Virus record (IMG/VR): IMGVR_UViG_3300002835_000086
DNA length: 64,000 nucleotides
Source of the DNA: a virus
Taxonomy: Duplodnaviria > Heunggongvirae > Uroviricota > Caudoviricetes
Reading direction: 5' to 3' (one strand)
The first letter of the stretch is position 1. Each line of letters begins with the position of its first letter. The notes beneath the pieces are model-generated. The model was not told the DNA's origin, ran no database searches, and worked only from the letters and a program-made list of their open reading frames with translations. Shown piece by piece: positions 3,564 through 44,422 of this stretch. A program made the position numbers and the translations under genes.

Positions 3564-4457
3564 ATGAGTGATTACAGACAATATATTACGGAATCCGTAA
3601 ATTTGCGTGACTATTTAACAGATTCTGATTACGAGATTATATTTTATGATATGTTGAGGGATTTTGCCTTCGAGAGAAATCCAAAGTTATCTCGTAGAAT
3701 CAATATGTCATATCTAATGACTAATTTTTTAGATAGTTTTATTAAACACTATAATTTGGATAAGAATAAAACACGTTATAGTCCAAGAGGTATTCCTGCA
3801 ATTTATGGTCGTGAACTTTATGACGCAGGTTTATATGAAGTATCAATTTATTCACCTGAGAAAAAATTTACAGACACGTTCAAAAGATATTTAAATTGGT
3901 CAATATCAAAAATGAATATACCTAAAGAAGTTAATTACACCGTAACTGAAGAAATACCTAATAATGTAGAATTCCGTACATTTATAAATTATGAAGATAT
4001 TGTTAAATCAGGCCAAGTAAATCCCGAAATTTTAAAATACACGTCTCGTTCATATTCATCTCCATTTAACAAATTAGTTAGTGACTTGAAGTCTGAGCTA
4101 AACCTAAAGAAGGGTAACCCAACTGAAGGAGGTATACAATTTAACGTATACGAAACAGAATATACTGGCCGTCAGGAGTGGACTCAAAAATTCCTTAAAC
4201 AACTTAGAAAATTTGTCAAGTCAAACGAGTTTTTAAAAGACAAGGTTAAAGCAATTAAACTAAAAGAAAACAACTACAGAATGAACCTCGACATAATTTT
4301 AAATAACCCTGACCAATACACATCTTGGCATAGTCGTAGTGAAAATAGAGAAAAATTACAAAATATTTTCACCGTTATTAAAGATTACATTGAAGGTGAA
4401 GGATATAGTTTATCAGTATTTGAAATAGATTCACCTACTATGAGAAAACACTTTTAA
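3564..4457 (+). CDS. hypothetical protein (plus-strand island with its own promoter and terminator)
   Basis: 297-aa ORF on the opposite strand to its neighbours, bracketed by the promoter motif and a bidirectional terminator. Confidence 0.55.
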   Translation: MSDYRQYITESVNLRDYLTDSDYEIIFYDMLRDFAFERNPKLSRRINMSYLMTNFLDSFIKHYNLDKNKTRYSPRGIPAIYGRELYDAGLYEVSIYSPEKKFTDTFKRYLNWSISKMNIPKEVNYTVTEEIPNNVEFRTFINYEDIVKSGQVNPEILKYTSRSYSSPFNKLVSDLKSELNLKKGNPTEGGIQFNVYETEYTGRQEWTQKFLKQLRKFVKSNEFLKDKVKAIKLKENNYRMNLDIILNNPDQYTSWHSRSENREKLQNIFTVIKDYIEGEGYSLSVFEIDSPTMRKHF

Positions 4458-4462
4458 ATAAA

Positions 4463-4492
4463 AACCCCCACTTTAAGTGAGGGTTTTTTGTT
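4463..4492. terminator. bidirectional rho-independent terminator (CCCCCAC...GTGAGGG family)
   Basis: aaaacccccactttaagtgagggtttttt lies between the convergent genes 3564..4457 (+) and 4493..4714 (-). Confidence 0.65.
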
Positions 4493-4714
4493 TTACCAAG
4501 ATTCAACATCAGTTAAATCAATTTCAACCTTAGCCAGGTGACTATAAACCACAAGACCATTTCCAATTCCTGTTGGAGTTATTTTCCAAGTGAATGTACC
4601 ATATTCTCCATAAATCGCTTTAATGTGTGATAACCATTCGTCATACATTTCCTGTTGTTTCTCATTAAGTTCCTCGTGAATTACAGTTTTTCTTATTTTA
4701 TTCTCTTCCATCAC
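4493..4714 (-). CDS. hypothetical small protein
   Basis: 73 aa; ATGA overlap with the RNA ligase gene upstream. Confidence 0.4.
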   Translation of the reverse strand: MMEENKIRKTVIHEELNEKQQEMYDEWLSHIKAIYGEYGTFTWKITPTGIGNGLVVYSHLAKVEIDLTDVESW

Positions 4715-5724
4715 TTCTCGTTTAATAAGAATTTATTACTGATTGCTTTGAAACTTATTTTGGTATCGTAAGACCTAACCACAACACCTTCACGTTCAGT
4801 ATTCCTGTTTAATACGGAACTACCTTCAGCATATTTTAACATACCTTCAACAGAATTTGGTAACAAGAAGTCCATCTCCAAGAAAGGAACATAATCAAAA
4901 CCACAATTCTCCATAAGGTCAACAAACTTTGGCATAGTATATCTAACACCATTATCAATGTCAAAGGCGTTGAAGAACTTTACCATCTGACCTTTAATTT
5001 TGTATGGGTTACCCTGAATACCTTCACCAATTAATTCACCTTGTAAACAAACGTTTTTGCCCAATGAACTTAACTTTTCTTCTATGTTCATTTCACGAGC
5101 AACTTTCCAAAAAGTATTACCTTCAGTTTCTAAAAGTTCCAAATTACGAGAACAAACACCAAACTCACCTTTTCTAAAGTAGAATGTTGCAGATGAACCA
5201 TCCAACTTTTCAGTTACGTAAAATTTGTGTTCACTCCTGTAACACATCGCAGAGTATTCAACAGAGATGTTCTGAACCCTTTCCTCATCAGTTTTGTGTA
5301 AGAACGATGGGAACGGACCTTTGACTTTACCAGCAAGTTCTGCGGGGATTGGTGGTTCGTATTTAACGATACCCAATCTCTCGGTAACATCAAGACCCTC
5401 ATAAGCTGTCCAACCAAAGTCCCCGAAGACACTCATAGGTAAGATTAAACCTTGTGAAACTTGTCCACGAAGTTTAATGGTTTTTAAACGGAAACCTTCT
5501 TGGTCACCCATTTTTTTGTAAGACGATTTACGCAAGAACTCGAAATCTTCTTTGATTGGTAGGAATGAATCAATCTCACAGTATACACACAAGTCACCAG
5601 GTTCGTATTCACCTTTCTTGGTAACAACCTTCCAACCTCCTACAACGGCAACTTCAATCGCATCGGCTCCGACGATTTCTTGGATGTCAGTAACTTTTCT
5701 AATAGACGCTAATTTTCTTTCCAT
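4711..5724 (-). CDS. ATP-dependent RNA ligase (RNA_ligase / Rnl family nucleotidyltransferase)
   Basis: Nucleotidyltransferase motif I as VTEKLDGSSATFYF (the K-x-DG lysine adenylation site), in a 337-aa protein of typical phage RNA ligase length. Confidence 0.75.
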   Translation of the reverse strand: MERKLASIRKVTDIQEIVGADAIEVAVVGGWKVVTKKGEYEPGDLCVYCEIDSFLPIKEDFEFLRKSSYKKMGDQEGFRLKTIKLRGQVSQGLILPMSVFGDFGWTAYEGLDVTERLGIVKYEPPIPAELAGKVKGPFPSFLHKTDEERVQNISVEYSAMCYRSEHKFYVTEKLDGSSATFYFRKGEFGVCSRNLELLETEGNTFWKVAREMNIEEKLSSLGKNVCLQGELIGEGIQGNPYKIKGQMVKFFNAFDIDNGVRYTMPKFVDLMENCGFDYVPFLEMDFLLPNSVEGMLKYAEGSSVLNRNTEREGVVVRSYDTKISFKAISNKFLLNEK

Positions 5725-6440: not shown

Positions 6441-7153
6441 TAACCAACATCTTTCTTAAAATGCTCAATGTTGTGTCTGTTAAAATAGTTGCTTATTACC
6501 AATCTAATCATTCCAAAATACCCCATCTTTAGAAATCTACGATTATCTTGCCCAACATAGTGTTTTGATATTTGGAACTTTTTTGGACTGTATTGTTTAC
6601 TGAGATGATAATCTTCTGAGTGTTGGAGCGTTTCATCGAACCCATCTGTACTGAAGAACGCACTACGAGTTGTCATAAAATAAGTCCCTAACGCAAACGG
6701 AACTTTCTTTTTCATAATGTGATTAATCCTGTTGAAAATCTTAAATATCATTTCACATTTAACATCACCATTTATACACCTAACATTACAAGTCAACAAA
6801 TCAAGGTTGTTATCCTCCATTTGTTTTAACGTGTCTTTTATTTGATTTGGGTTTAATAACGTTGAGTCAGCATCAAGGAATAAAATATATGGTGTAGTAC
6901 TTCTCATCGCACCTTGATTTCTCCCGTAAGCTACAGGACCACCATTAATCAACTCAATTTTGATTGTTGGCTCATAATAAGTTTTTAAAGACTTAACTAA
7001 GTCTCTTGTACCATCGGTGCTCTTAGCGTCTGCGACAATAACTTTAGTTCCCCAAATCCCATTTTGTGAAGCGATACTTGTAATTGTAGCATCAATATAC
7101 TTCCATTCATTATAGGATGGTATCACAATTGTTAGTTTATCTTTAATACTCAT
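6434..7153 (-). CDS. family 2 glycosyltransferase (GT-A fold)
   Basis: N-terminal LTIVIPSYNE, VIVADAKSTDGT and a LFLDADSTL DxD motif, classic GT2. Confidence 0.75.
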   Translation of the reverse strand: MSIKDKLTIVIPSYNEWKYIDATITSIASQNGIWGTKVIVADAKSTDGTRDLVKSLKTYYEPTIKIELINGGPVAYGRNQGAMRSTTPYILFLDADSTLLNPNQIKDTLKQMEDNNLDLLTCNVRCINGDVKCEMIFKIFNRINHIMKKKVPFALGTYFMTTRSAFFSTDGFDETLQHSEDYHLSKQYSPKKFQISKHYVGQDNRRFLKMGYFGMIRLVISNYFNRHNIEHFKKDVGYW

Positions 7154-7832
7154 TCAATTCAAATTTTCCGTTATTATAAATAATGTAGGATTTGTTTTCA
7201 ATCCAATCACCACAGTTAAGATAATGAACATCACTCACCATCTTATCAGATGGTTGATGTATGTGTCCACAAATCACTGTATCACATCCTCTCTTTTTCG
7301 CTTGGTAAGCCAATTGTTTCTCAAAGGATGTCATAAATTGTACCGCCTCTTTAACACTGTCTTTAAGGTATTTAGATAATGAAAACTTCATACCCATACC
7401 TTTTAGTTTTCTATCGACATAAATTGCTAAGTCATATCCCATTGAACCGATAACACCTAACCATTTCCACTTGACAACACCGTCATATAAATCACCGTGT
7501 GTTACAAAAACATTTTCACCAAACTTATATTCGTTGACGATTTTTATGTTACCGAAATCAATATCATCATACGACCTTAAGAAGTCATCGTGATTACCTG
7601 ATACGTAAATAACCTCAGTCCCATTCTTTGAGTAAGATAATATCTTTCTAATCACGTTTGTGTATGATTGTTTCCAATAAAATCTTTTTTTAAGTAACCA
7701 TCCATCTATAATGTCCCCCACCAAAAAAAGATATTTTGGTTCATACTTTTTAAGGACTTCAATTAGTTCTTCAGCGTTTACTCCTCGAGCACCCAAGTGA
7801 ACATCTGAGATAAACAACGCATCAATTTTCAT
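7143..7832 (-). CDS. calcineurin-like metallophosphoesterase (LpxH-like architecture)
   Basis: ISDVHLG ... GDIIDGW ... GNHDDF ... GHIHQ metal-binding motifs. Confidence 0.7.
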   Translation of the reverse strand: MKIDALFISDVHLGARGVNAEELIEVLKKYEPKYLFLVGDIIDGWLLKKRFYWKQSYTNVIRKILSYSKNGTEVIYVSGNHDDFLRSYDDIDFGNIKIVNEYKFGENVFVTHGDLYDGVVKWKWLGVIGSMGYDLAIYVDRKLKGMGMKFSLSKYLKDSVKEAVQFMTSFEKQLAYQAKKRGCDTVICGHIHQPSDKMVSDVHYLNCGDWIENKSYIIYNNGKFELNEY

Positions 7833-8851: not shown

Positions 8852-9253
8852 TTAAAGTTTAATCTCAAATCTATCTCTCATAGATTGTAATTTATCTTCA
8901 GGAACACCGTGAGCGTTTACTCCACCGTGACGATTTTCTACGATGATTGAAAACACCTTGTAATCCCAATCTTTTGCCATATCAATGTAACTCTGCATTT
9001 CCCACTCCTGTGTAAATGTATTTGATACAACTATCACATTGTTCAACCCTGCGGTGTGATTTAAAATCATTGCAGTATTAACACTGTGTTGACACCACTC
9101 GTGGGCGTCTCTCAATTTAGAACCATCGAACTTATATTCACCATTGACCATAAAGTATTGGTCAGTCTCAAAGTGAGTCCCCCCCAAGTTTTTTGCCAAT
9201 GTTGATTTACCTGAACCAGGGACACCTCTAACTAAGTATAAAATCTTTTCCAT
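8852..9253 (-). CDS. P-loop kinase (AAA_33 / polynucleotide-kinase-like)
   Basis: Walker A GVPGSGKST at the N-terminus; at 133 aa it is the size of the stand-alone kinase modules that accompany RNA ligases. Confidence 0.6.
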   Translation of the reverse strand: MEKILYLVRGVPGSGKSTLAKNLGGTHFETDQYFMVNGEYKFDGSKLRDAHEWCQHSVNTAMILNHTAGLNNVIVVSNTFTQEWEMQSYIDMAKDWDYKVFSIIVENRHGGVNAHGVPEDKLQSMRDRFEIKL

Positions 9254-13430: not shown

Positions 13431-13469
13431 AGGACAAAGGTAAAATAAAATATAGATTAAATCAAAAAA

Positions 13470-19507: not shown

Positions 19508-19545
19508 TTGTTTTTAACACTACAAAGATAGTGATATTATCCAAA
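19508..19545 (-). promoter_or_regulatory. TATCTTTGTAGTG promoter motif
   Basis: TAnnTTTG -7 element about 25 nt upstream of the ATG at 19495. Confidence 0.4.
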
Positions 19546-19560
19546 CTGCCAAAACTTTTT

Positions 19561-20560: not shown

Positions 20561-20881
20561 TTACTTGGTAACCAAAGCTTCCACTTTGGATTTCATATGT
20601 TCTGACAATGATACCTCACCAACCGTGGGTGTAATCAATGAAGTCAAAACAATTGAATCAACCAAATATTTGTACGGAATGTGAACCAAGAAGTCGGTAC
20701 CATTGAAGAAATCCAAATCTCCTTTGAGTTCCAAACAACCGTGAACCATTTTCAAAAACAACTTAAACTGAATACCGTCAACAAAGGTTTCATTCAAGAG
20801 GGTCCCGAACTTCTCGTTCTCAATCCTAATATTGTATGTAAAATTGATTTTCATACCACAAATATAGAAATAACTTTTCAT
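20561..20881 (-). CDS. hypothetical protein (start trimmed to MKSYFY)
   Basis: The tracked ORF 20561..20968 runs through the terminator hairpin of the upstream RNA; an internal Met after the hairpin is the more plausible start. Confidence 0.35.
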   Translation of the reverse strand: MKSYFYICGMKINFTYNIRIENEKFGTLLNETFVDGIQFKLFLKMVHGCLELKGDLDFFNGTDFLVHIPYKYLVDSIVLTSLITPTVGEVSLSEHMKSKVEALVTK

Positions 20882-20883
20882 AT

Positions 20884-20918
20884 AAACAAAAAAACCCGAA
20901 GATTTTTTTCTTCGGGTT
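20884..20918 (-). terminator. rho-independent terminator ending the ncRNA
   Basis: Minus strand reads cccgaagaaaaaaatcttcggg followed by ttttttt. Confidence 0.7.
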
Positions 20919-21805
20919 CTGGCACTTAGGTTGAGAATACACCTTCGATTAAGAATCTTTAGGGACATTATTGTTTCTTCCCGTTTCCACTACCTTTTGA
21001 GTAGTAATTCTTAGTGACGGTTCCTTAGGGGTACCATTCCTTGAGTCGTGCGGTTACTCTCTTTGTACTTGTTACTCTCCGAGGTTGCCACCCCAGTGAA
21101 TCCTTGCGGGATTAGAGAACTTTCTCAAGAATCATTTGGGTCTTGGGAACCCATAATGGCAATGAACATCTCATTACTATGTAGTCACCTTTCGCCTACG
21201 ACTGACAGACACTTTTCCTTCGTCTTTTAGTATTTGCATACTTCAAAATGCAAAGTTGTTGGTCTGTGGATGGTGAAAGTAGCGGTCTGCCAACCAGACA
21301 AGCCATCTTTTGAACGACTCGATACTGAACTACTCTCTGAGATATCCCTACCTCGATACTTCAAGAAATCTTCATAATTAAAATCTTGGTAGATTCTAAC
21401 TAAGGTTACCAACAGCACCACCTGTACGATAACATGACTTTCGTCTTTAAGACACCTCTGATATTGAATCCCGTGATTGTAAAGTTGGATGACTTTACTT
21501 CTCACAACAATTCTACGAGTTATTCTTATTGTTCTTCCGAACTCAACTCAACGACCCACATCGCTGAGTCATCATTCCATTTTGTCTACAGTGTCACCCT
21601 CGACTACTCAGGAACAATGATATCCCGCTTGCCTACTCGAGCTCTAAGAACCGAAGTTCAAAGAACCGCAGTCTCCGTTAACCTTCGGAGACCACTTTAT
21701 CCCACTTTCGTGGTTTATTTATTGACCATAGGCGGCCAATTATCTTATTTACTAACCTGTTGGTTAGAAGGATAATCAAATATGTAAAAGAACGTGTTTC
21801 GTTAA
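20884..21805 (-). ncRNA. candidate large structured non-coding RNA of about 0.9 kb (GOLLD/ROOL-class ornate RNA or other large ribozyme-like RNA)
   Basis: About 920 nt with no credible ORF on either strand and GC clearly above flanking DNA. Many short stem-loops carry GNRA or UUCG loops, for example CCAC-GAAA-GTGG, GAAC-TTCG-GTTC and GTCTCCG-AAGGTTAA-CGGAGAC. It begins just downstream of a TTG...TAACTTTG promoter next to the tRNA and ends at a strong terminator. Confidence 0.55.
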
Positions 21806-21811
21806 TTGTTT

Positions 21812-21844
21812 CACAAAGTTAAGAAGATTATTTTAATCTGTCAA
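21812..21844 (-). promoter_or_regulatory. Bacteroidetes-type promoter (TTGACA ... TAACTTTG) for the ncRNA
   Basis: Minus strand reads TTGACAGATTAAAATAATCTTCTTAACTTTGTG. The TAnnTTTG -7 box is preceded by a TTG at the appropriate distance. Confidence 0.4.
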
Positions 21845-21867
21845 GCACTTTGTAAAAGTTTTTTTTG

Positions 21868-21941
21868 TTGCGGGAGTCGGACTCGAACCGACGGCCTCAA
21901 GGTTATGAGCCTTGCGAGCTACCAACTGCTACCACCCCGCG
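21868..21941 (-). tRNA. tRNA-Met(CAU) with initiator (fMet) features
   Basis: Minus strand: CGCGGGGTGGTAGCAGTTGGTAGCTCGCAAGGCTCATAACCTTGAGGCCGTCGGTTCGAGTCCGACTCCCGCAA. The cloverleaf has anticodon stem CAAGG/CCTTG with loop CTCATAA (anticodon CAT), T-arm GTCGG-TTCGAGT-CCGAC and a 7-bp acceptor stem with a C1/A72 mismatch. It is near-identical at both ends to E. coli initiator tRNA (CGCGGGG...CCCCCGCAACCA). CCA is not encoded. There is one extra nucleotide in the D stem. Confidence 0.85.
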
Positions 21942-21963
21942 ATATATTTTAAAGAACGTGATT

Positions 21964-22014
21964 CGAAAAAAAATCCCAAAACTTATATCCTCTCGAACAC
22001 TCATTTTGGGATTT
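21964..22014 (-). terminator. rho-independent terminator (11-bp stem aaatcccaaaa / ttttgggattt)
   Basis: Long inverted repeat followed by a T-run on the minus strand, in the 3' region of the Nudix gene and upstream of the tRNA. Confidence 0.5.
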
Positions 22015-22171
22015 GGGGTTTGAGGATTCTACTCCTCTTCTTCCGAGTGTCTCACAAACTTACGAACAAATTTTGGACTTGTCAAATTGTTTATGAAACT
22101 TTTTTTGGGGGTATTATCTACCTTTCGGTAGAGTTTTATAAATATATGCTAAAATTGGAAAAAACCAAGTC

Positions 22172-22591
22172 TTACAGTATATTCATTAACAATTTATTTA
22201 ATTTTTCTCCTGTTTCAAGGTTTTTTACTTGTTTTTTGGTAAAATAACCACATTCGGTGTGTTCCTCACCGTCTTTGGCACTCTCCAAATCAGGTATAAG
22301 TTCCGTATCGCTATTGTATTCATATAGATACATTAGTCCCTTGAAGTGTTTACCATCACGCGTAAATCTTGGTAACATACCAGTGAACTTTAAGTTATCA
22401 GGATTCAAATCTAAATCAGTTTCTTCTTTAAATTCTCTAACAGCTGCCACCCTTGTCTCTTCCCCCTCTTCAATTTTTCCCGCAGGAACAGACCACATAC
22501 CAGGGAAACTACCCTTCTTATTTCTCTTACATAGTAAGCATTTGTCACCAACTTTGACTAGTACACCGACGTATCTTTTGTAATCATTCAT
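22172..22591 (-). CDS. Nudix hydrolase
   Basis: Nudix box GKIEEGEETRVAAVREFKEETDL (Gx5Ex7REUxEExGU). Confidence 0.8.
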   Translation of the reverse strand: MNDYKRYVGVLVKVGDKCLLCKRNKKGSFPGMWSVPAGKIEEGEETRVAAVREFKEETDLDLNPDNLKFTGMLPRFTRDGKHFKGLMYLYEYNSDTELIPDLESAKDGEEHTECGYFTKKQVKNLETGEKLNKLLMNIL

Positions 22592-22607: not shown

Positions 22608-22956
22608 GAGAGTAAAAATAGGTGAAAATATATTCAATGTGAAGATTAGACACGACAATAAAGGTCGTGCTATGGGTATGATGGGTCGTAAATTTACTGA
22701 CGAGTATAACGGTATGTTATTCTTTATGGATGAAGACTCAAGTTGTTTTTGGATGAAGAACTGCGTCATTCCTCTTGATATCATATTCATTGATAATAGA
22801 GTAATAACTAAGATACACCACGACTGTCCTCCTTGTAAAGAAGATGACTGTCCAAGTTATTGTGGAAAGGGTGGAATGATTTTAGAAATTATGGGTGGTT
22901 CTGCAAAAGAACTCGATATCAAAAAAGGTGATGAGATTAAGATTCTTGTTGACTAG
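22606..22956 (+). CDS. DUF192 (COG1430) family protein
   Basis: GMLFFMDEDSSCFWMKNCVIPLDIIFID ... YCGKGGMILEI ... KGDEIKI matches the conserved DUF192 core. Confidence 0.65.
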   Translation: MRVKIGENIFNVKIRHDNKGRAMGMMGRKFTDEYNGMLFFMDEDSSCFWMKNCVIPLDIIFIDNRVITKIHHDCPPCKEDDCPSYCGKGGMILEIMGGSAKELDIKKGDEIKILVD

Positions 22957-24355
22957 CATCAATCTTCTCTTGTAACTTTCTCAAAAATTCCTCACCAATC
23001 ATTTTAACAAACTTAATGTAAGGAGCGTCCTCTCTTTCAGGGTCGTATCTGTATGAACCTCTTGGTGGTCTTGTACTTCTTCCAAGATAGTTAAGTCCTG
23101 ATATGTTGGTAATACATTTGTGTCCACCTGAGTTAGCTTGAATCAAGTCCCAAGCGTTGATACCAATCTTATCTAACATTTGCATTTCTTCTTCAGATAG
23201 TTGGTCGTATGGTTTTTCCATCATATCCTTAATTTTATCAAGGATTTTTTCACCACCATCCATCATCATCAACTTACCACCATAAATTGCATCGAAGTCT
23301 TTGAATGTAAATCCTACTGATTCAGGTCCAACTGATGATTCACTCACATACTTTATCGTTGATAATGGGATTGTTCTATCTTTAAGTTGTCCCTCCCATT
23401 TGGCCAGAACCTCTTGTGCAATCTCACCGAGATTAACACCTTTGAGTTCTCTATCTTTTTTGAATGGATTACAAGATGCCTGTACTAACCCTAACGGCCA
23501 CATAATAATTAAGAAGTCAGCTTCAGGATTGTTTCTAAAAGGAGTGTATCGGTCATATGACCCAGTACCTTTTAAACTACCCATACCATACTGAACGATG
23601 ATATTACCAATCTTCCTAACATTTGGATGACCTTTCATTGAGTCCATATAGGTCTCAGCGTTTCTTTGAAGGTCCTCAGGTTTTTCTCTTGTATTGGAAC
23701 CCATCCAAGATTTGATGTTGTTTAATATTGAAAGTAAGGATGGTTCCGAATCATTAACCAAGTATTCAAGGAACCCTTTCTTGTTTTTGAACGCCAACAA
23801 TAGTTTGTTTGTAACAAATCCTAACAACATTTTGTTACTAGCCAAATCTTTTTCTTTGTTAAGTCTAAACAAATAATTGATTACATCCTTGGTTGTTAAA
23901 CCATATTTGGCAAAGTCTGCTGAGTCGACAGTTGATATTAATCTAATGTCATCAGCAGGAAATAATTCTTTTGGTGAGATAATTTGTGAAATGGTTTCAA
24001 CGTTTGACCTTGCCTGTCTAAAAGACTTTGAAGCGTCTTTCTCAGCACCGACTTGTTTGTCGTGGTGGTCAGTGTGAATAACAAACATTGGTTTACCGTG
24101 AGCAAAATCAACTAAGACTGGCATTACATCACCAGATGCATCAGGTTTTTTAACTGAGAATTCTTTATCTCCATACTGTATAACCTCACTATCAACAACT
24201 TTAATACCATTATCTTCAAGGTATTTTTTCATTGCAATTGCAGTTGTTACACCATCCAAATCTTGGTGGAAATATATTTTAGCCTTTGGGTATCTTTGTG
24301 CCAAAGCCTTAATGTCTCTTAAACCTGATTCCTTAATTATTTTTTTCATACACAC
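22937..24355 (-). CDS. DHH-DHHA1 family phosphoesterase (NrnA/RecJ-like nanoRNase or pAp/cyclic-dinucleotide phosphodiesterase)
   Basis: HQDLDGVTTAIA (motif I/II) and FVIHTDHHDKQ (DHH motif) at the N-terminus; GGH of DHHA1 (ANSGGHKC) near the C-terminus. Confidence 0.7.
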   Translation of the reverse strand: MCMKKIIKESGLRDIKALAQRYPKAKIYFHQDLDGVTTAIAMKKYLEDNGIKVVDSEVIQYGDKEFSVKKPDASGDVMPVLVDFAHGKPMFVIHTDHHDKQVGAEKDASKSFRQARSNVETISQIISPKELFPADDIRLISTVDSADFAKYGLTTKDVINYLFRLNKEKDLASNKMLLGFVTNKLLLAFKNKKGFLEYLVNDSEPSLLSILNNIKSWMGSNTREKPEDLQRNAETYMDSMKGHPNVRKIGNIIVQYGMGSLKGTGSYDRYTPFRNNPEADFLIIMWPLGLVQASCNPFKKDRELKGVNLGEIAQEVLAKWEGQLKDRTIPLSTIKYVSESSVGPESVGFTFKDFDAIYGGKLMMMDGGEKILDKIKDMMEKPYDQLSEEEMQMLDKIGINAWDLIQANSGGHKCITNISGLNYLGRSTRPPRGSYRYDPEREDAPYIKFVKMIGEEFLRKLQEKIDASQQES

Positions 24356-30243: not shown

Positions 30244-30252
30244 ATCACAAAA

Positions 30253-31038
30253 TTACGAAACAATTTTTAAATTATCAAAATTTTCTAACTTTTCTTTTGG
30301 GACACTTTGAAGAATATATGAAAGAAGTTTTCTTTTCGCCATTGGGATAAGCGTCTCTTCAAAAGGGAAATGTTGTCTTGATTGAAACTCAAACACAGGT
30401 AATTTACTTTGGTACACGTCTTGTTTCCAATTTGTAGATTCATTAATTATTTGATTAACTGTTCTACCATCAGTAACTCCTGAAAAAATAGACTCAAGAT
30501 GTAATTTAGAGTCTTTTGACTTTTTTATCTTTCTTATTGAGTACTCCCAAATGTATAACTCTTTTTCAGGTTTACGAGTATAAACTAAGTACCCATAACC
30601 TTTGTGTAAGTAGTTCTTATTTTTTTTATGTTGTATATCTGTAGATTCGTAAACAATAGACCATATGGATTTACCAATACTGAAAACATCCATAAGTTTT
30701 GAGTTTGAGTAATATAAAGTTTTCTTTAATTCTAAACTTTGGTCTTCATTTAGATTAGGTAATTTTTTTGGGTATAATTCTTTCAATAGAATTTCATCAT
30801 CACAAGTTTCGAATTTTTTATTCGTAAGTAATAATGTATTTTCTCGATTAATTGATTGGACATTAGCTAAATGAAGTGAAATCTCGACAAAATCAGGGTA
30901 TATCTTATAATCGTCAAAACTACTCTCACATTTTTGTATGTAATCTAATAGCGTATATTTGTTATACTCAAAATCTATTGGTTCCTGAAACATCCATTCA
31001 GGACTCAACTTAAATTGTGTTTTTCTCTTTCTTCCCAT
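30253..31038 (-). CDS. hypothetical protein
   Basis: 261-aa ORF. Confidence 0.5.
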   Translation of the reverse strand: MGRKRKTQFKLSPEWMFQEPIDFEYNKYTLLDYIQKCESSFDDYKIYPDFVEISLHLANVQSINRENTLLLTNKKFETCDDEILLKELYPKKLPNLNEDQSLELKKTLYYSNSKLMDVFSIGKSIWSIVYESTDIQHKKNKNYLHKGYGYLVYTRKPEKELYIWEYSIRKIKKSKDSKLHLESIFSGVTDGRTVNQIINESTNWKQDVYQSKLPVFEFQSRQHFPFEETLIPMAKRKLLSYILQSVPKEKLENFDNLKIVS

Positions 31039-32820: not shown

Positions 32821-32909
32821 TATTTTTTATTTGATAAATACTTTGATTGATTTATATTTCTACAAGTTTACTATTTATATGTAATAAAACTCCAATACTA
32901 CAAAATTAT

Positions 32910-33059
32910 GGGATGTGGTTGTAAAAACAAAGCAAACAACAGTACTAACACTCAATCAAGTCAACAACAGACTCAAGCAACCGCTCAAAGAGCTCAGTAT
33001 GTTCAAGAGACTGTTAAAGATGCCATTAAGAAAACAGTTGAGAAATATTACAAACGTTA
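32910..33059 (+). CDS. small Gln-rich protein (49 aa, MGCGCK N-terminus), not in the ORF track
   Basis: My own translation of 32910-33059 gives a 49-aa ORF, followed by a clean terminator at 33085-33113. Confidence 0.3.
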
Positions 33060-33121: not shown

Positions 33122-34144
33122 GTGATGACAGGGAAATTACAAAGATTAATCGACGATGTTAATAATGGTAAATTTGATATTATCAAAGATTTTTTTGGTG
33201 ATATGGAAACTTTTTTGGACTATCTTGGTAAAAAAGGTTTGATACACGAATTAGACCTTATTAACAACGAAGAAGAATTCGAATATGAAGTTAACAAAAT
33301 AGCCCTCGCAATTAAAGAACATAATCCCGAAAAATTTAGAGAATATGTTTTATCTTCATTAAGTGATGTTACTTATGAAAATGGTGAATACTATGTGACT
33401 TTGAATGATAAAAGTAGACTCGCGTATCTTTTTTGTGATGATAGAAGAAATGGTATGTCTCAATCAACAATATCAGAGATACTAGATGGTGAATGGGATT
33501 TTGATTTTTGGGATACTACCGATAATGTTTATAGGGATGTTATTCAAGAACTAAATAAGGATAATCTTACTTATTTATCAAAAAAAATAAGTAACGAATT
33601 ATCTGACGTTAAGGTAGAACCTGAAACAGAATTGTTAGAAGAAATTGCCGAGGAACAAGGTCATCCTGAATATGTAACCTTAACCCCCGAGTTGATTCAC
33701 GACAGAATATTCAATGATGAGGATTCAACAGAAAGTATTTTGAATGAAACCGAAAACATTAAATCAGATTTACACTCATTACATAACAGAGCATATGCAA
33801 ATGCTTATGAAGATGAGGTGTATAGTGGTATAATGGATGAACTTGAAACATTTTTTGATATGCGCCATTCTGATTGGATAACAGTTCCAAGTAGTGTAAA
33901 CCCAAACAAATCTTATACCTATTTCAAAGTTAAAATAAATAATTTTGATTCAGAGATTTCCGATTACCTTAATAACGCGAAGAATCATAATGAACCATTA
34001 AGTAATTATGGTGACTATCTTAGTATTTTGAGTGAAAATATTAGTTATGGTAGTGCCAATTGTTTGGTATATTACACGCCTGATTATGCGGATTGGCCAA
34101 AAACAAAAGAAAATATTAACGAACTTTTTGGTGACTATTTTTAA
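33122..34144 (+). CDS. hypothetical acidic protein
   Basis: 340-aa plus-strand ORF, convergent with the first collagen-like gene. Confidence 0.5.
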
Positions 34145-37100
34145 ATAATCCCCTTTAGTTTAGCTTTATCCAAAACTTTTTTAGCTCTCTCTTCAAGAGA
34201 TGTTATTCTAACCTCTTGTTCTTTTAACGCTTCAATGTTAACGGCAATCATTTCTTTATAATTCATTGTTAACACTTTACCTTCAGTATAAATAACTTCA
34301 GGAACATAAGGCAAAACTTCTTGAGCAATAAATCCAATAGCTTTTTTGTCATTAGAACTATATTCTTTACCTCTCCATTTAAATGTGACACCTCTAATAC
34401 TTAATATCTTATTTAGAGCATCACCGATAGGTTTAACATCTTTTTTCAGTCTTTCATCTGAAGGACCTGTTGGTCCTTGTGGACCTTGAGCTCCTTGTGC
34501 TCCGAATGTTGAACTAGCACCTCCTTGAGCCCCTGGTGCTCCTTGTGCCCCTGTTGGACCTGGTGTTGCAGAACCTTGAGCACCTGTTGGTCCTTTAAGA
34601 CCTGTAGGTCCTTGTGCACCGACGGCTCCCTCAAAACCTTGTGAACCTTGAGCTCCTTGAGCCCCTGTTGCACCTTGTGCACCTTGTGGTCCATTAGGAG
34701 ACGTTGGCCCTTGAGCCCCTTGAGCTCCTTGAGCTCCAATAGCACCTGAATTTCCTTGAGCGCCTTGAGCACCTTGAGCGCCGGCTGTACCTGAACCTTG
34801 AGCACCTTGAGGTCCTGTTGGTCCTGTTGCACCTTGAGGTCCTGTTGGTCCTGTTGCACCTTGAGCACCTTGAAATCCTTGACCCCCTGTAGGTCCTACG
34901 GCTCCTTGTGAACCTTGAGCCCCTTGAGGTCCTGTTGGTCCTGTTGCACCTTGAGCTCCTTGAGCTCCAACAGGTCCTTGAGCACCTGTGGCTCCTTGGA
35001 ATCCCTGCTGACCATTAGGTCCTATTCCACCTACGTCCCCTTGAGCACCTTGCGCTCCTTGGAATCCTTGTCCTCCTGTTGCTCCTTGAGACCCTTGAGC
35101 ACCTGTTCCTCCTTGAGCTCCCTGAAAACCTTGTCCTCCTTGCGCCCCTTGTGGACCTTGAGCTCCTGTGGCACCTTGAGCACCTTGAGCTCCCTGCCCA
35201 CCTTGCGCTCCTTGTGGACCTATTGCTCCTTGGAAACCTTGTGCTCCTTGAAAACCTTGTCCTCCTTGAGCCCCTTGAGTTCCTGTTGCTCCTTGAGCAC
35301 CTTGAGCCCCTTGTGCTCCCTGTCCTCCTGTTGCGCCTTGAGCTCCTTGTGCTCCTTGTCCTCCTGTTGCTCCTTGGACTCCTTGTCCACCTGTTGCTCC
35401 TTGCGCACCTTGGTTACCAACAGCACCTTGAGCTCCTTGGAAACCTTGAGCCCCCTGACCTCCTTGTGCACCTTGTACTCCAACAGCACCTTGAGCCCCT
35501 TGTGCTCCTTGGAAACCTTGTCCTCCTTGAGCACCTTGAGTACCTGATATACCTACAGAACCTTGAGAACCTTGAGCCCCTTGTCCTCCTTGAGCACCTT
35601 GAGTTCCTGATACACCTTGAGCTCCTTGAGCCCCTTGGAAACCTTGACCTCCTTGAGCACCTTGAGTTCCTGTTGTACCTTGAGCCCCTTGAGCTCCTTG
35701 AAAACCTTGTCCTCCTTGAGCTCCTTGGGTTCCTGTTGCTCCTTGAGCTCCTTGAGCTCCTTGAGCTCCTTGGAAACCTTGAGCACCTTGGGTTCCTGTT
35801 GCACCTTGAGCCCCTTGAGCTCCTTGGAAACCTTGACCTCCTTGAGCCCCTTGGGTTCCTGTCGCTCCTTGTGCACCTTGAGCTCCTTGTGCTCCCTGTC
35901 CACCCTGAGCACCCTGAGTTGCTGTCGCTCCTTGCGCTCCTTGAGCTCCTTGAGCTCCTTGACCACCTTGAGCACCTTGGTTACCAACTGCCCCTTGTGA
36001 ACCTTGAGCCCCTTGTGCTCCTTGTCCACCTTGGGCTCCCTGATTACCTTTAGCCCCTTGAGCTCCTTGCGCCCCTTGGGCTCCTTGACCACCTTGAGCA
36101 CCTTGGTTACCAACTGCCCCTTGTGAACCTTGAGCCCCTTGCGCTCCTTGTCCACCTTGCGCTCCTTGTCCACCTTGAGCACCTTGAGCCCCTTGTGCTC
36201 CTTGAGCACCTTGTCCTCCTTGAGCACCTTGTGTTCCCGTTGCACCTTGAGCACCTTGAGCTCCTTGGAAACCTTGTCCACCTTGAGCACCCTGTGTTCC
36301 TGTTGCTCCTTGAGCCCCTTGTGCTCCTTGGGCTCCTTGTCCACCTTGAGCACCCTGTGTTCCTGTTGCACCTTGAGCACCTTGTGCTCCTTGGGCTCCT
36401 TGTCCACCTTGGGCACCTTGGTTACCCTTTCCACCTTGAGCACCTTGTGCTCCTTGGGCTCCTTGTCCACCTTGAGCACCCTGTGTTCCTGTTGCACCTT
36501 GAGCACCTTGTGCTCCTTGGGCTCCTTGTCCACCTTGGGCACCTTGGTTACCCTTTCCACCTTGAGCACCTTGTGCTCCTTGGGCCCCTTGTCCACCTTG
36601 AGCACCCTGATTACCTGTCGCACCCTGAGCCCCTTGAGCTCCTTGAGCTCCCTGTCCACCTTGTGCACCTTGGTTACCAACCGCTCCTTGTGAACCTTGA
36701 GCTCCTTGAGCTCCTTGTCCTCCTTGGGCGCCTTGGTTACCAACCGCTCCTTGTGAACCTTGAGCTCCTTGAGCACCTTGTCCACCTTGAGCACCTTGAT
36801 TACCTTTTCCACCTTGAGCGCCTTGAGCTCCTTGAGCTCCTTGTCCTCCTTGGGCACCTTGGTTACCAACCGCTCCTTGTGAACCTTGAGCTCCTTGAGC
36901 TCCTTGTCCACCTTGAGCGCCTTGATTACCTTTTCCACCTTGGGCGCCTTGAGCACCTTGAGCACCTTGTCCTCCTTGAGCCCCTTGGTTACCTGTTGCC
37001 CCTTGAGCTCCTTGTGCGCCTTGTGAACCTTGCCCTCCTGTTGCTCCTTGGGAACCTTGAGCTCCTTGGGCTCCTTGACTACCAACCGCTCCTTGAGCAC

Positions 37101-37425
37101 CTTGGTTACCAGTATTACCCTGAGCACCTTGTCCTCCTTGGGCACCTTGATTACCTTGAGCGCCTTGTGGTCCAGCATTTACATTACCTTTCCATCCGGT
37201 AGAGTCTATTATTAATCCGTAATTGTTTGTAACTGTATTAGCACTTAAATTTGTATTTTGTACTTGGAATATAGGTGCTGTCTTGGCAATTTTTAGATAT
37301 GTTGTTGTTTGATTTACAACATAATTCAATGTAGAACTAGAATATACCAAATCACTTCGAGTATTCCCCGAATCATAAAATTGTATTGTTATACTTGCAG
37401 GTACTATTATTATATTCTCAGCCAC
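34141..37425 (-). CDS. collagen-like (Gly-X-Y) fibre protein with C-terminal tail-fibre intramolecular-chaperone (peptidase S74) domain
   Basis: About 300 uninterrupted G-X-Y triplets ([12 protein letters not shown]...). A ~85-aa N-terminal domain is shared with the two paralogues. The C-terminus, [22 protein letters not shown]...IGFIAQEV, matches the S-D-x-R-L-K autocleavage site and chaperone fold of phage tail-fibre/tailspike C-terminal domains. Confidence 0.85.
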
Positions 37426-40400
37426 GTAATTTTTCTTCTAATTCAGTTAATGATGTTTTAAGGACATCCATTCTTTTTTGATTTTCTTTTACAAAAGATA
37501 CTCCAAGAGTAACAAGTAGTTCATACTGTAAAGATTTATAACCAAACTTATCTTCCCAAACAATTTCAGGAAAATATTTTTCAACTTGTTGGGCGATAAA
37601 ACCTATACTTCGTTTTTTAAGTAAATACTTTTCATTGTCTTTATACAATGAAAGTTGTGGTATATTTTCAACCCAATCAAAAGATACACCATTCATATTA
37701 ACAACATCAATAGCTCTATCAAATTTCTTGATGTTTTCTTTCAATCTTCTATCTGAAGGTGGCCCTTGAGGTCCTTGAGCACCTTGTGCTCCTTGTGGTC
37801 CCGTTTTACCAGCATTACCTTGAGCACCTTGAGCACCTTGTGGTCCTGTAACACTAGCACCTTGAGCTCCTTGAGAACCAGTACCTCCTGCAGGTCCTGT
37901 TGCACCTTGAGCTCCTTGGACTCCTTGTGGACCTGTCCCACCTGTAACAGCTCCTTGAGCGCCTTGTGCTCCTTGTGCCCCTGCAGCTCCTTTTCCTCCT
38001 TGAGCACCTTGTGCTCCTGTGGAACCCTGAGTTCCGGCCTTTCCTGTTGCACCTGTAGCACCTTTTGGTCCCGATGGTCCTTGAGCTCCTGTTGGTCCTT
38101 GAGGTCCTCTTGACCCTTGTACACCTTGTCCTCCTGTCTGACCTGCAGCACCTTGAGCCCCCTGTGTCGCACCCGCAGGTCCTTTTGTTCCTCCCGCACC
38201 TTGAGCACCTGTAGGACCTGGACCTCCTGTAGGACCTGTCGCTCCTTGAGACCCTTGAGAACCTTGAGCTCCAGCGGGTCCTTGAGCACCTTGTGTAACA
38301 CTCGGATTCCCTTGTGGTCCTTGTGAACCTGTTGCTCCTGTGGCACCCTGAGCTCCTTGGGTACCTCCTTGAGCACCTGTGGCTCCTTGTGGGCCTTGAG
38401 GTCCTTTTGCTCCTTGAGCTCCTTGAGGACCTCCTTGAGCCCCTATCGGACCTTGGGCTCCTTGAGCTCCTGTAGCACCTGTTGCACCTTGAGTACCTCC
38501 TGTAGCACCTTGGAATCCCTGAGGTCCTGTAGCACCTGTAGCACCCTGAGCCCCTTGAGGTCCTCCTTGTGCACCAACAGGTCCTTGAGCACCTGTAGCA
38601 CCTGTAGCACCTGGAGCCCCTTGCGGAGTACCTTGTGGTCCTTGAGCACCTTGAGCTCCTGTTGGTCCTGTAGAGCCTGTTGCTCCTTGGACCGCTCCTT
38701 GAGCACCTTGATTACCAACAGCACCTGTTTGTCCAGTCGCACCTTGTGCCCCTTGAGCACCTTGAGGTCCTCCTGGATTTCCCTGAGCACCTTGGGCTCC
38801 TTGTCCACCTTGAGCACCCTGTGCACCTGTTGGTCCTCCCTGTGCACCTGTTGGTCCTTGAGCACCTTGGGCTCCTTGAGCACCTTGTCCTCCTTGTACA
38901 CCTCCTTGAGAACCTGTTGGTCCTTGAGCTCCTGTCGCACCTGTGGCACCTGTCGCTCCTTGCGTTCCTCCTTGAGCACCTGTTGGTCCTTGAGCCCCTG
39001 TTGCACCTGTGGCTCCTGTAGCCCCTTGAGGTCCTCCTTGTGCACCAACAGGTCCTTGAGCTCCTGTAGCTCCTGTGGCTCCCGTCGCACCCTGAACTCC
39101 ACCTTGAGCACCTGTTGGTCCTTGAGCTCCTGTAGCTCCTGTGGCCCCTGTTGCACCCTGAACTCCACCTTGAGCACCTGTAGGTCCTTGTGCACCTGTT
39201 GTTCCATTAGCACCCGTTGCCCCCTGAACTCCACCTTGAGCACCTGTTGGCCCTTGTGCACCTGTTGTTCCATTAGCACCTTGAGCCCCTTGAGGTCCTC
39301 CTTGTGCACCTGTTGGTCCTTGGGCACCTGTTGTACCTTGAGCACCTTGAGCTCCTTGAGAAGCTCCTTGTGCTCCTTGTGAACCAACGGCTCCTTGAGC
39401 ACCTTGTGCTCCCTGATTTCCCTGAACTCCACCTTGTGCTCCTGTAGGTCCTTGGGCACCTGTTGTACCTTGAGCACCTTGAGCCCCTTGAGAAGCCCCT
39501 TGAGCTCCTTGTGAACCAACGGCTCCTTGTGCACCCTGTGCTCCCTGATTTCCCTGAACTCCACCTTGTGCTCCTGTAGGTCCTTGTGCACCTGTTGTAC
39601 CAGCGGCACCTGTTGCCCCCTGAACTCCACCTTGAGCACCTGTAGGTCCTTGTGCTCCTGTGGCACCTGTCGCACCTGTTGCCCCTTGGACACCTCCTTG
39701 AGCTCCCGTACTACCTTGAGCTCCTTGAGCACCTGTCGTACCCTGAGCACCCTGAGAAGCACCTTGTGCACCTTGTGAACCAACGGCTCCTTGAGCACCT
39801 TGTGCTCCCTGATTTCCTTGGACACCACCTTGAGCTCCCGTAGGTCCTTGGGCACCTGTCGTACCTTGAGCACCTTGAGCACCTTGTGATGCACCTTGAG
39901 CTCCTTGTGAACCAACGGCTCCTTGAGCACCTTGTGCTCCCTGATTTCCTTGGACACCACCTTGAGCACCTGTTGTCCCTTGAGCACCTTGAGCTCCTGT
40001 CGCCCCTGTCGCTCCTTGCGTTCCTCCTTGAGCGCCCGTACTACCTTGGGCACCTTGGGCACCTGTGGCTCCTGTCGCTCCTTGTGTTCCTCCTTGAGCA
40101 CCTGTACTACCTTGAGCACCTTGTGCCCCTGTCGTACCTTGAGCACCTTGTGAACCTCCTTGAGCACCTTGTGAACCAACGGCTCCCTGAGCACCTTGGG
40201 CTCCTTGTCCTCCTTGTGTCCCACCTTGAGCACCTGTACTACCTTGAGCACCTTGAGCACCTGTCGTACCTTGAGCACCTTGTGAACCTCCTTGAGCTCC
40301 TTGTGAACCAACGGCTCCTTGAGCACCTTGTGCTCCCTGATTTCCTTGGACACCACCTTGAGCACCTGCAATACCTTGAGCACCTTGTGCCCCTGTTGTT

Positions 40401-40840
40401 CCTTGCGCCCCTTGAGACGCTCCTTGAGCACCTTGTGCTCCTACTGCTCCTTGAGCACCAGTACTACCTTGTGCTCCTTGAGCTCCTGTACTACCACCCC
40501 CACCTTGAGCTCCCGTTGTTCCTTGTGCCCCAACATTTCCTTGAGCTCCTTGAGCACCTTTAATAGTTGTTTGTGGTCCAATCCATACACCGGCATTATT
40601 AATCATATTTTGACCACCAACCCATAAACCTGATGGTGAACTTGATATTGTAACACCTGTAGTTGTTATGTCATTATTACTGAAAACTACTAATGATGGA
40701 CTTGTTGTTGCAGAAAATTTGACATCACCCGGTGCAACCATATTAATTTGGATACTATCCGCAGCAGACGCCCCCTCGTATACTATATGAGGCGATGAGT
40801 TTCCTGTAGTTCCACTTGGATATATTATTACGTCTGCCAT
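37418..40840 (-). CDS. collagen-like fibre protein 2 with periodic G-X-Y-Z interruptions and C-terminal S74 chaperone domain
   Basis: About 310 triplets. One-residue insertions (GASQG, GGVQG, GGTQG, GGPQG) recur roughly every 7 triplets through most of the helix. The C-terminus reads [29 protein letters not shown]...[16 protein letters not shown]. Confidence 0.85.
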
Positions 40841-40843
40841 ATA

Positions 40844-43800: not shown

Positions 43801-44422
43801 CTGTCGCACCTCCGTTACCTGTTGGTCCGACATTACCCTGAGCACCTTGATTACCTTGAGAACCTTGAGCTCCCACATTACCTTGTGCGCCAGGATGTCC
43901 TGTTGAACCCTGAGCTCCTTGTGCACCTGTCGCTCCTCCGTTACCTGTTGGTCCGACATTACCCTGAGCGCCCTGATTACCCTGAGCACCTGTTGGTCCC
44001 ACGTTTCCTTGTGCACCAGGATGTCCTTGAGAACCTTGAGCATTTGCTGAACCTTGAGCTCCTTGATTACCCTTTCCACCTTGTGAACCTTGTGAACCCT
44101 GAGCACCCGTATTTCCAATGGCTCCTTGAGCTCCTTGATTACCTTGGAATCCTGTTATATTTGTTCCAGGTCCTAACCAAGCACCTGTACCATTTAATAC
44201 TTGAATTCCTCCAATAGTTAGATTATTAATGATATTAATATCATCATACGCTTGGATACCACCCGATGACATTAATAATGTAGAACCCCACTTTATAGAA
44301 GTACCAGCACCATAAGGTCTGACCTCTAACCTCAAAGTTCCCGTATTTTCAAAATCAATATAGGGAATCCTTCCGGGATTCGGGACTAAATTACCAGGTA
44401 CAATTGTTATATTTTTTGCCAT
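40844..44422 (-). CDS. collagen-like fibre protein 3 with Cys-rich distal domain and C-terminal S74 chaperone domain
   Basis: About 280 triplets, then a ~110-aa Cys-rich non-collagen domain ([11 protein letters not shown]...CANLSCVTP...[12 protein letters not shown]), then [10 protein letters not shown]...FGFIAQEV. Confidence 0.85.

Follow-up and report, generated by a model that had tools for sequence, protein, structure and literature searches.

An initiator-type tRNA-Met(CAU) gene beside a GOLLD RNA in a Caudoviricetes sequence from IMG/VR

The virus record IMGVR_UViG_3300002835_000086 (Caudoviricetes) was analyzed over a stretch of 64,000 nucleotides (nt), referred to as the window. Using ARAGORN, exactly one tRNA gene was detected in the window, a tRNA-Met(CAT) at 21867-21941 on the minus strand, which is followed on the same strand by a GOLLD RNA. 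The initial annotation of this DNA had described a single tRNA-Met(CAU) with the C1/A72 mismatch and an acceptor end resembling E. coli tRNA-fMet, located at 21868-21941. These coordinates correspond to C1 to A73; the strand had not been stated and the adjacent GOLLD RNA had not been mentioned. The tRNA, its mismatch and its fMet-like acceptor end were confirmed by ARAGORN and Rfam and by an identity of 63/75 to a copy from the E. coli metZWV locus. Read in the direction of transcription, the elements of the locus form a predicted RNA island with the order promoter, structured leader, tRNA, promoter, GOLLD and terminator (Table 1).

The minus-strand sequence of the tRNA is CGCGGGGUGGUAGCAGUUGGUAGCUCGCAAGGCUCAUAACCUUGAGGCCGUCGGUUCGAGUCCGACUCCCGCAAC. 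In the ARAGORN fold, the acceptor strands CGCGGGG and UCCCGCA are followed by the discriminator A73. C1 and A72 are unpaired, and G2 to G7 pair with U66 to C71, including G2:C71, C3:G70 and the wobble pair G7:U66. The anticodon stem CAAGG/CCUUG contains A29:U41, G30:C40 and G31:C39, with two G:C pairs adjoining the canonical anticodon loop CUCAUAA. The anticodon was found at position 35 instead of 34, which corresponds to one additional base 5′ of the anticodon. It is most readily taken as a bulged U located between G10 and A11, a reading in which the D-stem pairs G10:C25, A11:U24, G12:C23 and C13:G22 are preserved. CCA is not encoded in the gene, the corresponding sequence being CAAC, followed by A7. 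Both irregularities listed in the initial annotation, two rather than three G:C pairs before the anticodon loop and an additional D-stem base, are therefore real.

The Rfam tRNA model matches with 37 bits (gathering score 29), with E-values of 3.7e-4 for the whole window and 2.9e-6 for a 501-nt stretch. The score is low because of the insertion in the D arm and because 1:72 is open. The single-sequence minimum free energy (MFE) fold did not result in a clean cloverleaf and was indistinguishable from shuffled sequences (z = −1.2). This fold is uninformative, and covariation among homologues was used in its place.

For the covariation analysis, the window tRNA was aligned to nine phage homologues and one Pelagibacteraceae initiator, and the pairs of these 11 sequences were counted on the cloverleaf. 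In total, 95.7% of the cells were paired and nine pairs showed compensatory changes, which was reached by none of 500 shuffles; slid registers of the same alignment gave 43-52% pairing. For 20 of the 21 cloverleaf pairs, pairing was kept in 97-100% of the cells, the exception being 1:72. This position was unpaired in nine homologues (C:A, C:U, U:U, A:A) and A:U or U:A in two, and a G:C pair was not found in any of them. A11:U24, G30:C40 and G31:C39 were invariant in all 11 homologues (for A11:U24, this holds if the extra U is taken to be bulged), and 29:41 was A:U in ten and U:A in one. Of 110 additional viral tRNAs sharing this anticodon arm, a single one has a G:C pair at 1:72 (among the matches listed). 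Because 1:72 alone stays open while the other pairs are kept, the open top of the acceptor stem is, judged from the alignment, a maintained feature and not a misfold.

It had been left open whether the gene is an initiator variant or the precursor of a tRNA-Ile2, in which C34 is converted to lysidine. The CAU anticodon is common to initiator tRNA-Met, elongator tRNA-Met and tRNA-Ile2, just two G:C pairs are located beside the loop, and the generic Rfam model sets the acceptor stem in a shifted register, so that the open 1:72 could be an artefact of the fold. However, the shifted register has three mismatches per side, whereas six clean pairs are formed in the ARAGORN register. In addition, none of the homologues has more than a weak pair at 1:72, in contrast to the co-variation seen for all other pairs.

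As an internal control, 39 non-initiator CAU tRNAs from the same fetched loci were examined. G1:C72 was found in 38 and C11:G24 in 35 of them. G:C pairs at both 30:40 and 31:39 were present in two controls, neither of which has the au/GC/GC or the 3GC form. A purine at position 11 paired with a pyrimidine at position 24 (A11:U24) marks initiator tRNA-fMet, whereas elongators have a pyrimidine at 11 and a purine at 24. The window tRNA shows the opposite of the controls, as it has no paired G1:C72, carries the invariant A11:U24 instead of a pyrimidine11:purine24 pair and has G30:C40/G31:C39. Its identity to non-initiator CAU tRNAs is 50-52/75, compared to 63-68/75 for initiators. An elongator tRNA-Met or a tRNA-Ile2 was thus rejected and is hardly tenable as an explanation of this gene, and of the two options considered before, the initiator variant stands, with its determinants present.

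The best E. coli matches of the window tRNA are the genes of the metZWV locus, a triple tRNA-Met cluster next to amiC, to one copy of which the above identity of 63/75 refers. Identities of 67-68/75 were found for bacterial au/GC/GC initiators (67/75 for Pelagibacteraceae and Alloprevotella). As a side observation, the third gene of the metZWV cluster in E. coli strain 510016 (401-477 of locus L246) has GTCAGG...CCCGA with A29 opposite C41; the usual sequence is GTCGGG.

In the au/GC/GC form, three consecutive purine:pyrimidine pairs are present and the two loop-proximal ones are G:C, as observed in the window tRNA. Bacterial genomes, one per species, were scanned for the exact anticodon arm CAAGGCTCATAACCTTGAGG, resulting in at least 120 loci. 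All 112 tRNAs recovered with this arm have initiator acceptor stems of the CGCGGGG...CCCCGCA-A type (among the matches listed). The carriers listed include Pelagibacteraceae, Patescibacteria, Omnitrophota, Planctomycetota, Elusimicrobia, Alloprevotella, Bradyrhizobium and others. Initiators of this form are known to occur naturally in alpha-proteobacteria and some mycoplasmas (Shetty et al., PMC5389676). Since the arm-sharing bacterial tRNAs are all initiators and the form is documented as natural, A29:U41 appears to be harmless and does not count against initiator identity. The results further show that the distribution of the au/GC/GC variant among bacteria and phages extends far beyond alpha-proteobacteria and mycoplasmas. 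On these sequence characters, the assignment of the window tRNA to the initiator type, i.e. the bacterial tRNA-fMet class, is well supported.

The bulged U was identified in the window tRNA and in locus L002. Among the matches listed, it is carried by 14 of the 84 unique viral tRNAs that share the anticodon arm and by none of the 78 unique bacterial initiators with this arm. The acceptor and T stems of the bulged-U tRNAs have diverged with compensation. From its recurrence, the additional base is a phage trait and not an error of the contig.

The same base could alternatively be the sign of a decaying relic, i.e. a captured host initiator gene or the remnant of an attachment site which was disabled by the D-stem insertion. 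The low generic tRNA score of 37 bits and the shuffle-like MFE fold would fit to this. However, the gene is full length, and at least 14 distinct viral sequences with compensated divergence of their acceptor and T stems retain the bulged U. The promoter-like element, the leader and the motif described below are conserved in relatives of 72-88% identity, which are jumbo or huge phages without a sign of integration at the site. A relic is therefore highly improbable.

GOLLD RNAs are among the largest non-coding RNAs of bacteria or phages, and to our knowledge no function has been known for them since their first description. The 3′ domain in the window was identified using the Rfam model RF02032 (model positions 1-416) with 307.5 bits, compared to a gathering score of 150 (E = 4.3e-87). 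For the 5′ domain, the sequence of env-38 was taken from the cryo-electron microscopy (cryo-EM) construct in the supplement of PMC12286853. Its 5′ part aligns to 21738..21307 with 68% identity over 454 nt (E = 1e-31), and the 5′ domain of the window is 71.5% identical to the huge phage LR745206. The RNA was assigned to GOLLD based on both the covariance model score above the gathering score and the variable 5′ domain upstream. It spans approximately 21738..20928 (810 nt), starting 129 nt past the tRNA. With its end at 21867, the tRNA is located outside the 5′ and 3′ domains, is separated from them by a promoter-like element and is not embedded in a GOLLD linker. GOLLD was found to assemble into RNA-only nanocages, and env-38 was resolved as a 14-mer by cryo-EM (PDB 9MEE; PMC12286853).

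The tRNA and GOLLD are each preceded by a copy of the same promoter-like element and of the same short motif. The promoter-like pattern TTGACA-N17-TAAsTTTG-TGArAC matches twice in 64 kb, with 0.07 matches expected. The copy upstream of the tRNA fits to TTGACA/−10 as well as to the Bacteroidota consensus of TTTG at −33 and TAnnTTTG at −7. The consensus TTTG / TAnnTTTG was described for Flavobacterium/Bacteroides promoters (PMC7641319). The motif CACGTTCTTTwAmATAT was found only twice in the window, with 0.09 matches expected. In relatives it reads (G)AACGTTCTT-AAAATA and (G)AACGTTC-TTTAA and is partly palindromic. It is a candidate operator or promoter element common to both RNAs. A general phage promoter CACGTTCTTT... 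was rejected, as there are only two copies in 64 kb.

The conserved leader which connects the first promoter-like element to the tRNA has an MFE of −32.9 kcal/mol (z = −5.0; none of 200 shuffles was equally stable). Its stem is kept via compensatory changes in relatives. Possible identities of the leader are a terminator, an attenuator or a small RNA. A search of Rfam with a permissive threshold resulted in chance-level matches only and in no family, and a small ORF (open reading frame) was rejected, because the ATG is not conserved in relatives. In six related phage loci the promoter, leader, motif and tRNA are all conserved, and the second promoter copy is present in most of them.

To determine how often a tRNA accompanies GOLLD, 121 GOLLD loci were surveyed, comprising at least 119 IMG/VR loci found with a pattern of the 3′ domain, the window and LR745206. 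This survey leans to one broad GOLLD family, the sequences of the alpha-proteobacterial-phage subfamily being too divergent for a pattern of their own. In 13 of the 121 loci a tRNA is located on the same strand 824-909 nt upstream of the 3′-domain pattern, and all 13 are initiator-type tRNA-Met. In six more loci an initiator-type tRNA-Met starts 10-24 nt past the GOLLD 3′ end; this spacing implies that tRNA and GOLLD are co-transcribed. An aberrant CAU tRNA-like element was found at the downstream position in four loci (L012, L035, L057, L094), and for the one of them which was checked (L012) there was no Rfam call. Among the viral contigs with a tRNA or tRNA-like element downstream, some are related and others unrelated.

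In the surveyed IMG/VR loci, tRNAs of other types were never found directly beside GOLLD, although CAU tRNAs account for 36 of 181 tRNAs there. No flanking tRNA was found for 82 of the 121 GOLLD loci. The upstream cases belong mostly to one phage lineage, which is syntenic with the window at 72-88% identity. When the 3′ domains were clustered at 90% identity, a flanking CAU tRNA was present in 9 of 24 clusters. In the reverse direction, 110 new viral loci were picked by the tRNA arm alone, and 16 of these hold a GOLLD 3′ domain. In 15 of the 16, GOLLD follows 530-1110 nt downstream on the same strand, which is again the layout of tRNA first and GOLLD second; these 15 GOLLD variants had escaped the first pattern. 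All survey counts of this and the preceding paragraph are among the matches listed.

The arrangement was also found in genomes of named phages. The 634-kb huge phage LR745206 carries a tRNA-Met (U1xU72, A11:U24, UA/GC/GC) followed by GOLLD. The Roseobacter phage DSS3P8 has an initiator-like tRNA-Met (U1:A72, A11:U24, divergent anticodon stem), then GOLLD and then a permuted transfer-messenger RNA (tmRNA). In the Caulobacter phage phiCbK, an initiator-like tRNA-Met (C1xU72, UA/GC/GC) is located beside GOLLD on the opposite strand. A Mesorhizobium phage has a tRNA-Asp upstream of GOLLD within a large array, and in an Erythrobacter phage no tRNA was found upstream of GOLLD. LR745206 is an exception insofar as odd long tRNA-like elements flank its GOLLD on both sides. 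Overall, the pairing of tRNA and GOLLD is recurrent and specific, and it is not obligatory.

Some further elements were observed near GOLLD. In LR745206 (L001, approximately 2380-2470 and 3580-3660, minus strand), a tRNA-like element of about 90 nt with a long insert is present upstream of the tRNA-Met and just past GOLLD, and a similar element close by was called by ARAGORN as an odd tRNA-Pro(agg) of 90 nt. Permuted or standard tmRNA genes, which encode a further RNA with a role in translation, are located about 0.2-2.3 kb from GOLLD in four loci (Table 1). Near the start of the GOLLD 3′ domain, tRNA-like elements were detected at 2607-2680 (L242), 2577-2648 (L243) and 2589-2666 (L245). These were called Gly, Leu and Glu by ARAGORN and have poor acceptor stems; the hosts of the respective phages are Caulobacter (phiCbK), Mesorhizobium and Erythrobacter.

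The tight linkage allows for an explanation in which the tRNA is mainly an accessory of GOLLD, either as a processing handle, with RNase P and 3′ cleavages setting the GOLLD ends, or as a partner or cargo of the nanocage. In addition to the stereotyped upstream position, the lack of other directly flanking tRNA types, the result of the reverse search and the occurrence in LR745206, DSS3P8 and env-38 (PMC12286853), the 10-24 nt spacing of the downstream loci leaves no room for a promoter. The promoter module is duplicated and the motif is common to tRNA and GOLLD. The bulged-D variant is enriched beside GOLLD, where it was found in 8 of 14 unique sequences, compared to 6 of 70 others (among the matches listed). 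On the other hand, any tRNA could serve as a handle, which leaves the initiator type with its charging and formylation determinants unexplained. GOLLD in the window is equipped with a separate promoter-like element and a terminator. Since 82 of 121 GOLLD loci have no flanking tRNA and 94 of 110 phage initiator tRNAs have no GOLLD nearby (among the matches listed), each RNA can exist without the other. Furthermore, many of the loci are from related phages and the counts are not independent events. An accessory role is compatible with an initiator function and is considered possible, though doubtful as the main role.

A more far-reaching and equally tentative idea is that initiator tRNA and GOLLD constitute a functional two-RNA module. 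The nanocage might store the tRNA, shield it from host nucleases or deliver it to ribosomes, or the pair might reprogram translation initiation, and the bulged U might mark the partner tRNAs. If true, this would be the first concrete functional handle on GOLLD. The flanking tRNA, when present, is an initiator-type tRNA-Met, which can be located on either side of GOLLD; this points to translation initiation and to a possible interaction of tRNA and GOLLD. The recurrent module is a testable lead on GOLLD function and not an established mechanism.

The window further encodes an RpoD-like sigma factor (57789-58598), DnaJ, a cyclophilin, a glutamine-synthetase-like protein, two DNA methyltransferases, several glycosyltransferases, Nudix proteins and metallophosphoesterase proteins. 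A DRB0094-type ATP-dependent RNA ligase was identified as an NCBIfam equivalog with 216 bits. In its vicinity, a metallophosphoesterase and a small kinase of the P-loop type (AAA_33) are encoded (4711-5724, 7143-7832 and 8852-9253, minus strand). Together, the three may serve in the repair of RNA or tRNA, which would be of relevance for defences that cleave tRNAs. At 34141-44422 (minus strand), three consecutive ORFs with lengths of 1094, 1140 and 1192 aa consist of 9-nt repeats, CCTTGAGCT on the plus strand, which correspond to collagen-like Gly-X-Y triplets of the Gly-Ala-Gln type. The GC content of this region is 0.47-0.58, compared to about 0.32 in the rest of the window, and matches to the repeat region were found in L099 and L064.

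Related contigs reach 290-304 kb. The gene of a 472-aa protein beside the RNA island stays next to GOLLD in relatives without the tRNA (L005, L065 and others). The protein has a weak Pfam DHH match below the threshold, no match was found in a PDB sequence search or in NCBIfam, and an exact-protein look-up was negative. Within the phage collection, relatives at the protein level were found solely in Mahaphage genomes (634-735 kb), a clade with predicted Bacteroidetes hosts (PMC7162821). The pattern TTTG-N18-21-TAnnTTTG has six full matches in the window. Each of them is located on the coding strand and, as read from the ORF map, in an intergenic position. The D loop, the T loop and the absent CCA are common to the window tRNA and the Alloprevotella initiator. 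Taken from these sequence features, a Bacteroidota host is likely. A SAR11 host, suggested by the GC content of 32% and the identity of 67/75 to the Pelagibacteraceae initiator, was downgraded because of the Mahaphage protein relatives, the TTTG/TAnnTTTG promoters and the likeness to the Alloprevotella tRNA. A near-identity search with 24 kb against 50,697 phage records gave no match; the phage does not correspond to a sequenced isolate.

Table 1. Positions of the RNA island, its neighbours and related loci. Positions without a locus name refer to the window.
Feature	Position or locus	Strand	Basis or remark
Initiator-type tRNA-Met(CAU)	21867..21941	−	ARAGORN, Rfam tRNA, covariation, comparison with initiators and non-initiator CAU controls
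Promoter-like element upstream of tRNA	22049..22086	−	TTTGACA-N17-TAAGTTTG-TGAGAC
Conserved leader, promoter to tRNA	21962..22048 (~95 nt)	−	invariant ACACUCGGAAGAAGAGGAGU, then long hairpin ~22013..21972, then U8
Motif copy 1	21944..21960	−	CACGTTCTTTAAAATAT; ends 2 nt before tRNA position 1
Second promoter-like copy, between tRNA and GOLLD	21808..21844	−	TTGACA-N17-TAACTTTG-TGAAAC
Motif copy 2	21780..21796	−	CACGTTCTTTTACATAT; ~42 nt before GOLLD 5′ end
GOLLD 5′ (variable) domain	21338..21738	−	alignment to env-38 and LR745206
GOLLD conserved 3′ domain	20928..21337	−	Rfam RF02032
Terminator-like hairpin and T run	20891..20920	−	12-bp stem, then TTTTTTTGTT; directly 3′ of GOLLD
Nudix hydrolase	22172-22591	−	beside RNA island
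472-aa protein	22937-24355	−	beside RNA island
Bacteroidota promoter-consensus matches	13435-13466, 19523-19553, 20859-20890, 22055-22086, 30248-30279, 32901-32931	−	
Loci with downstream tRNA or tRNA-like element	L012, L023, L030, L035, L042, L057, L065, L093, L094, L104		e.g. L065: GOLLD 3974-4389, tRNA 4413-4484
tmRNA near GOLLD	L244 3172-3558; L242 1716-2034; L030 6034-6424; L012 861-1249		DSS3P8, phiCbK, two IMG/VR contigs
Viral loci with bulged U	L250, L255, L256, L260, L265, L270, L276, L291, L299, L304, L338, L345, L347, L004-type, L002		

Taking all results together, the gene most probably encodes a functional bacterial-type initiator tRNA of an uncultured jumbo-type phage, located in a compact island of non-coding RNAs; we assign this a probability of roughly 0.7. 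The interpretation builds on the predicted cloverleaf, the sequence determinants, the apparently selectively maintained open 1:72 and the conserved place beside GOLLD. The main determinant for the formyltransferase Fmt was described to be the 1:72 mismatch together with 2:71 and 3:70 (PMC5389676).

Expression, processing, charging, formylation and use in initiation would then proceed as follows. The tRNA gene would be transcribed from a host-type promoter, and the 5′ end would be generated by host RNase P. The 3′ end would be trimmed, followed by CCA addition, which would be needed because CCA is not encoded. Charging could be carried out by the host methionyl-tRNA synthetase (MetRS) by means of the CAU anticodon and A73, and formylation by the host formyltransferase by means of the open 1:72, G2:C71 and C3:G70. 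The tRNA could then be accepted at the ribosomal P site through G30:C40, G31:C39 and the purine:pyrimidine pair at 29:41. As a result, the host initiator pool would be supplemented or replaced during the takeover of translation by the phage. The window tRNA would thereby support the picture of large phages bringing their own translation-initiation parts.

Several observations weigh against this interpretation. The anticodon stem deviates from the strict 3GC rule, in which 29:41, 30:40 and 31:39 are all G:C, and the au/GC/GC variant was found to initiate more weakly in E. coli (PMC5389676). The bulged D stem is without a counterpart in the 78 bacterial initiators and depresses the generic tRNA score to 37 bits. 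The hairpin and U8 between the promoter-like element and the tRNA could halt transcription before the gene. Scanning 49 ORFs of the window against Pfam revealed neither a formyltransferase or deformylase nor a MetRS or CCA-adding enzyme. Finally, the tight linkage to GOLLD suggests that the tRNA may not serve translation only.

A special status of the gene as a phage-encoded initiator tRNA is not supported. The scan of IMG/VR for this single anticodon-arm variant resulted in at least 120 viral contigs, 110 of the copies being new, and tRNA-fMet is annotated in cultured phages. Many phages have tRNAs which are 79-85% identical to the window tRNA. Among them are Prevotella Lak phages and the Stenotrophomonas phage vB_Sm_QDWS359, whose gene is annotated as tRNA-fMet. 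Erwinia jumbo phages were also reported to carry tRNA-fMet (PMC7760394). Phage-encoded initiator tRNAs are thus widespread, and the window tRNA is another case of a known gene class.

In the initial annotation, securing initiation when the host initiator is depleted or cleaved by VapC-type toxins had been put forward as a possible role of the tRNA. Enteric phages tend to avoid tRNA-fMet, which is a target of VapC (Van den Berg et al., PMC10264068), whereas environmental phages clearly do encode it. Loop changes were reported for phage tRNAs which evade nucleases (PMC10264068). None of the anticodon-loop changes described there was found in the window tRNA; its CUCAUAA loop is canonical and gives no indication of evasion at the sequence level.

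Compared to other phage tRNA-fMet genes (Stenotrophomonas phage vB_Sm_QDWS359, Lak and Erwinia jumbo phages), the window tRNA belongs to the same class and is 80-85% identical across the tRNA in the matches. It differs from them in being the sole tRNA in 64 kb instead of being part of an array, in its bulged D stem and in its fixed position beside GOLLD.

The order of the env-38 locus is the same as in the window, tRNA-Met followed by GOLLD. For env-38, a position downstream of a Met-tRNA was described, and GOLLD was reported to be often located near tRNA islands (Kretsch et al., PMC12286853); neither the initiator type of the tRNA nor the recurrence of the arrangement is stated in that paper. 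Physical linkage of tRNA and GOLLD is further known from tRNAs embedded in the GOLLD linker J13/15, such as the tRNA-Phe of Mycolicibacterium, and from GOLLD within tRNA arrays (PMC12990946, PMC6582537). Unlike the embedded tRNAs, the window tRNA is located outside GOLLD, 129 nt upstream and with its own promoter-like element, and it is of the initiator type instead of being Phe-, Gly- or Leu-like.

With bacterial tRNA-fMet, the window tRNA shares C1xA72, G2:C71, C3:G70, A73, A11:U24, the loop CUCAUAA and, in the au/GC/GC form, A29:U41/G30:C40/G31:C39. It differs in being phage-encoded, in the bulged U, in G7:U66 and in the lack of an encoded CCA. Whereas bacterial tRNA-fMet genes are found in the context of host tRNAs or of nusA-infB, the gene described here is located beside GOLLD.

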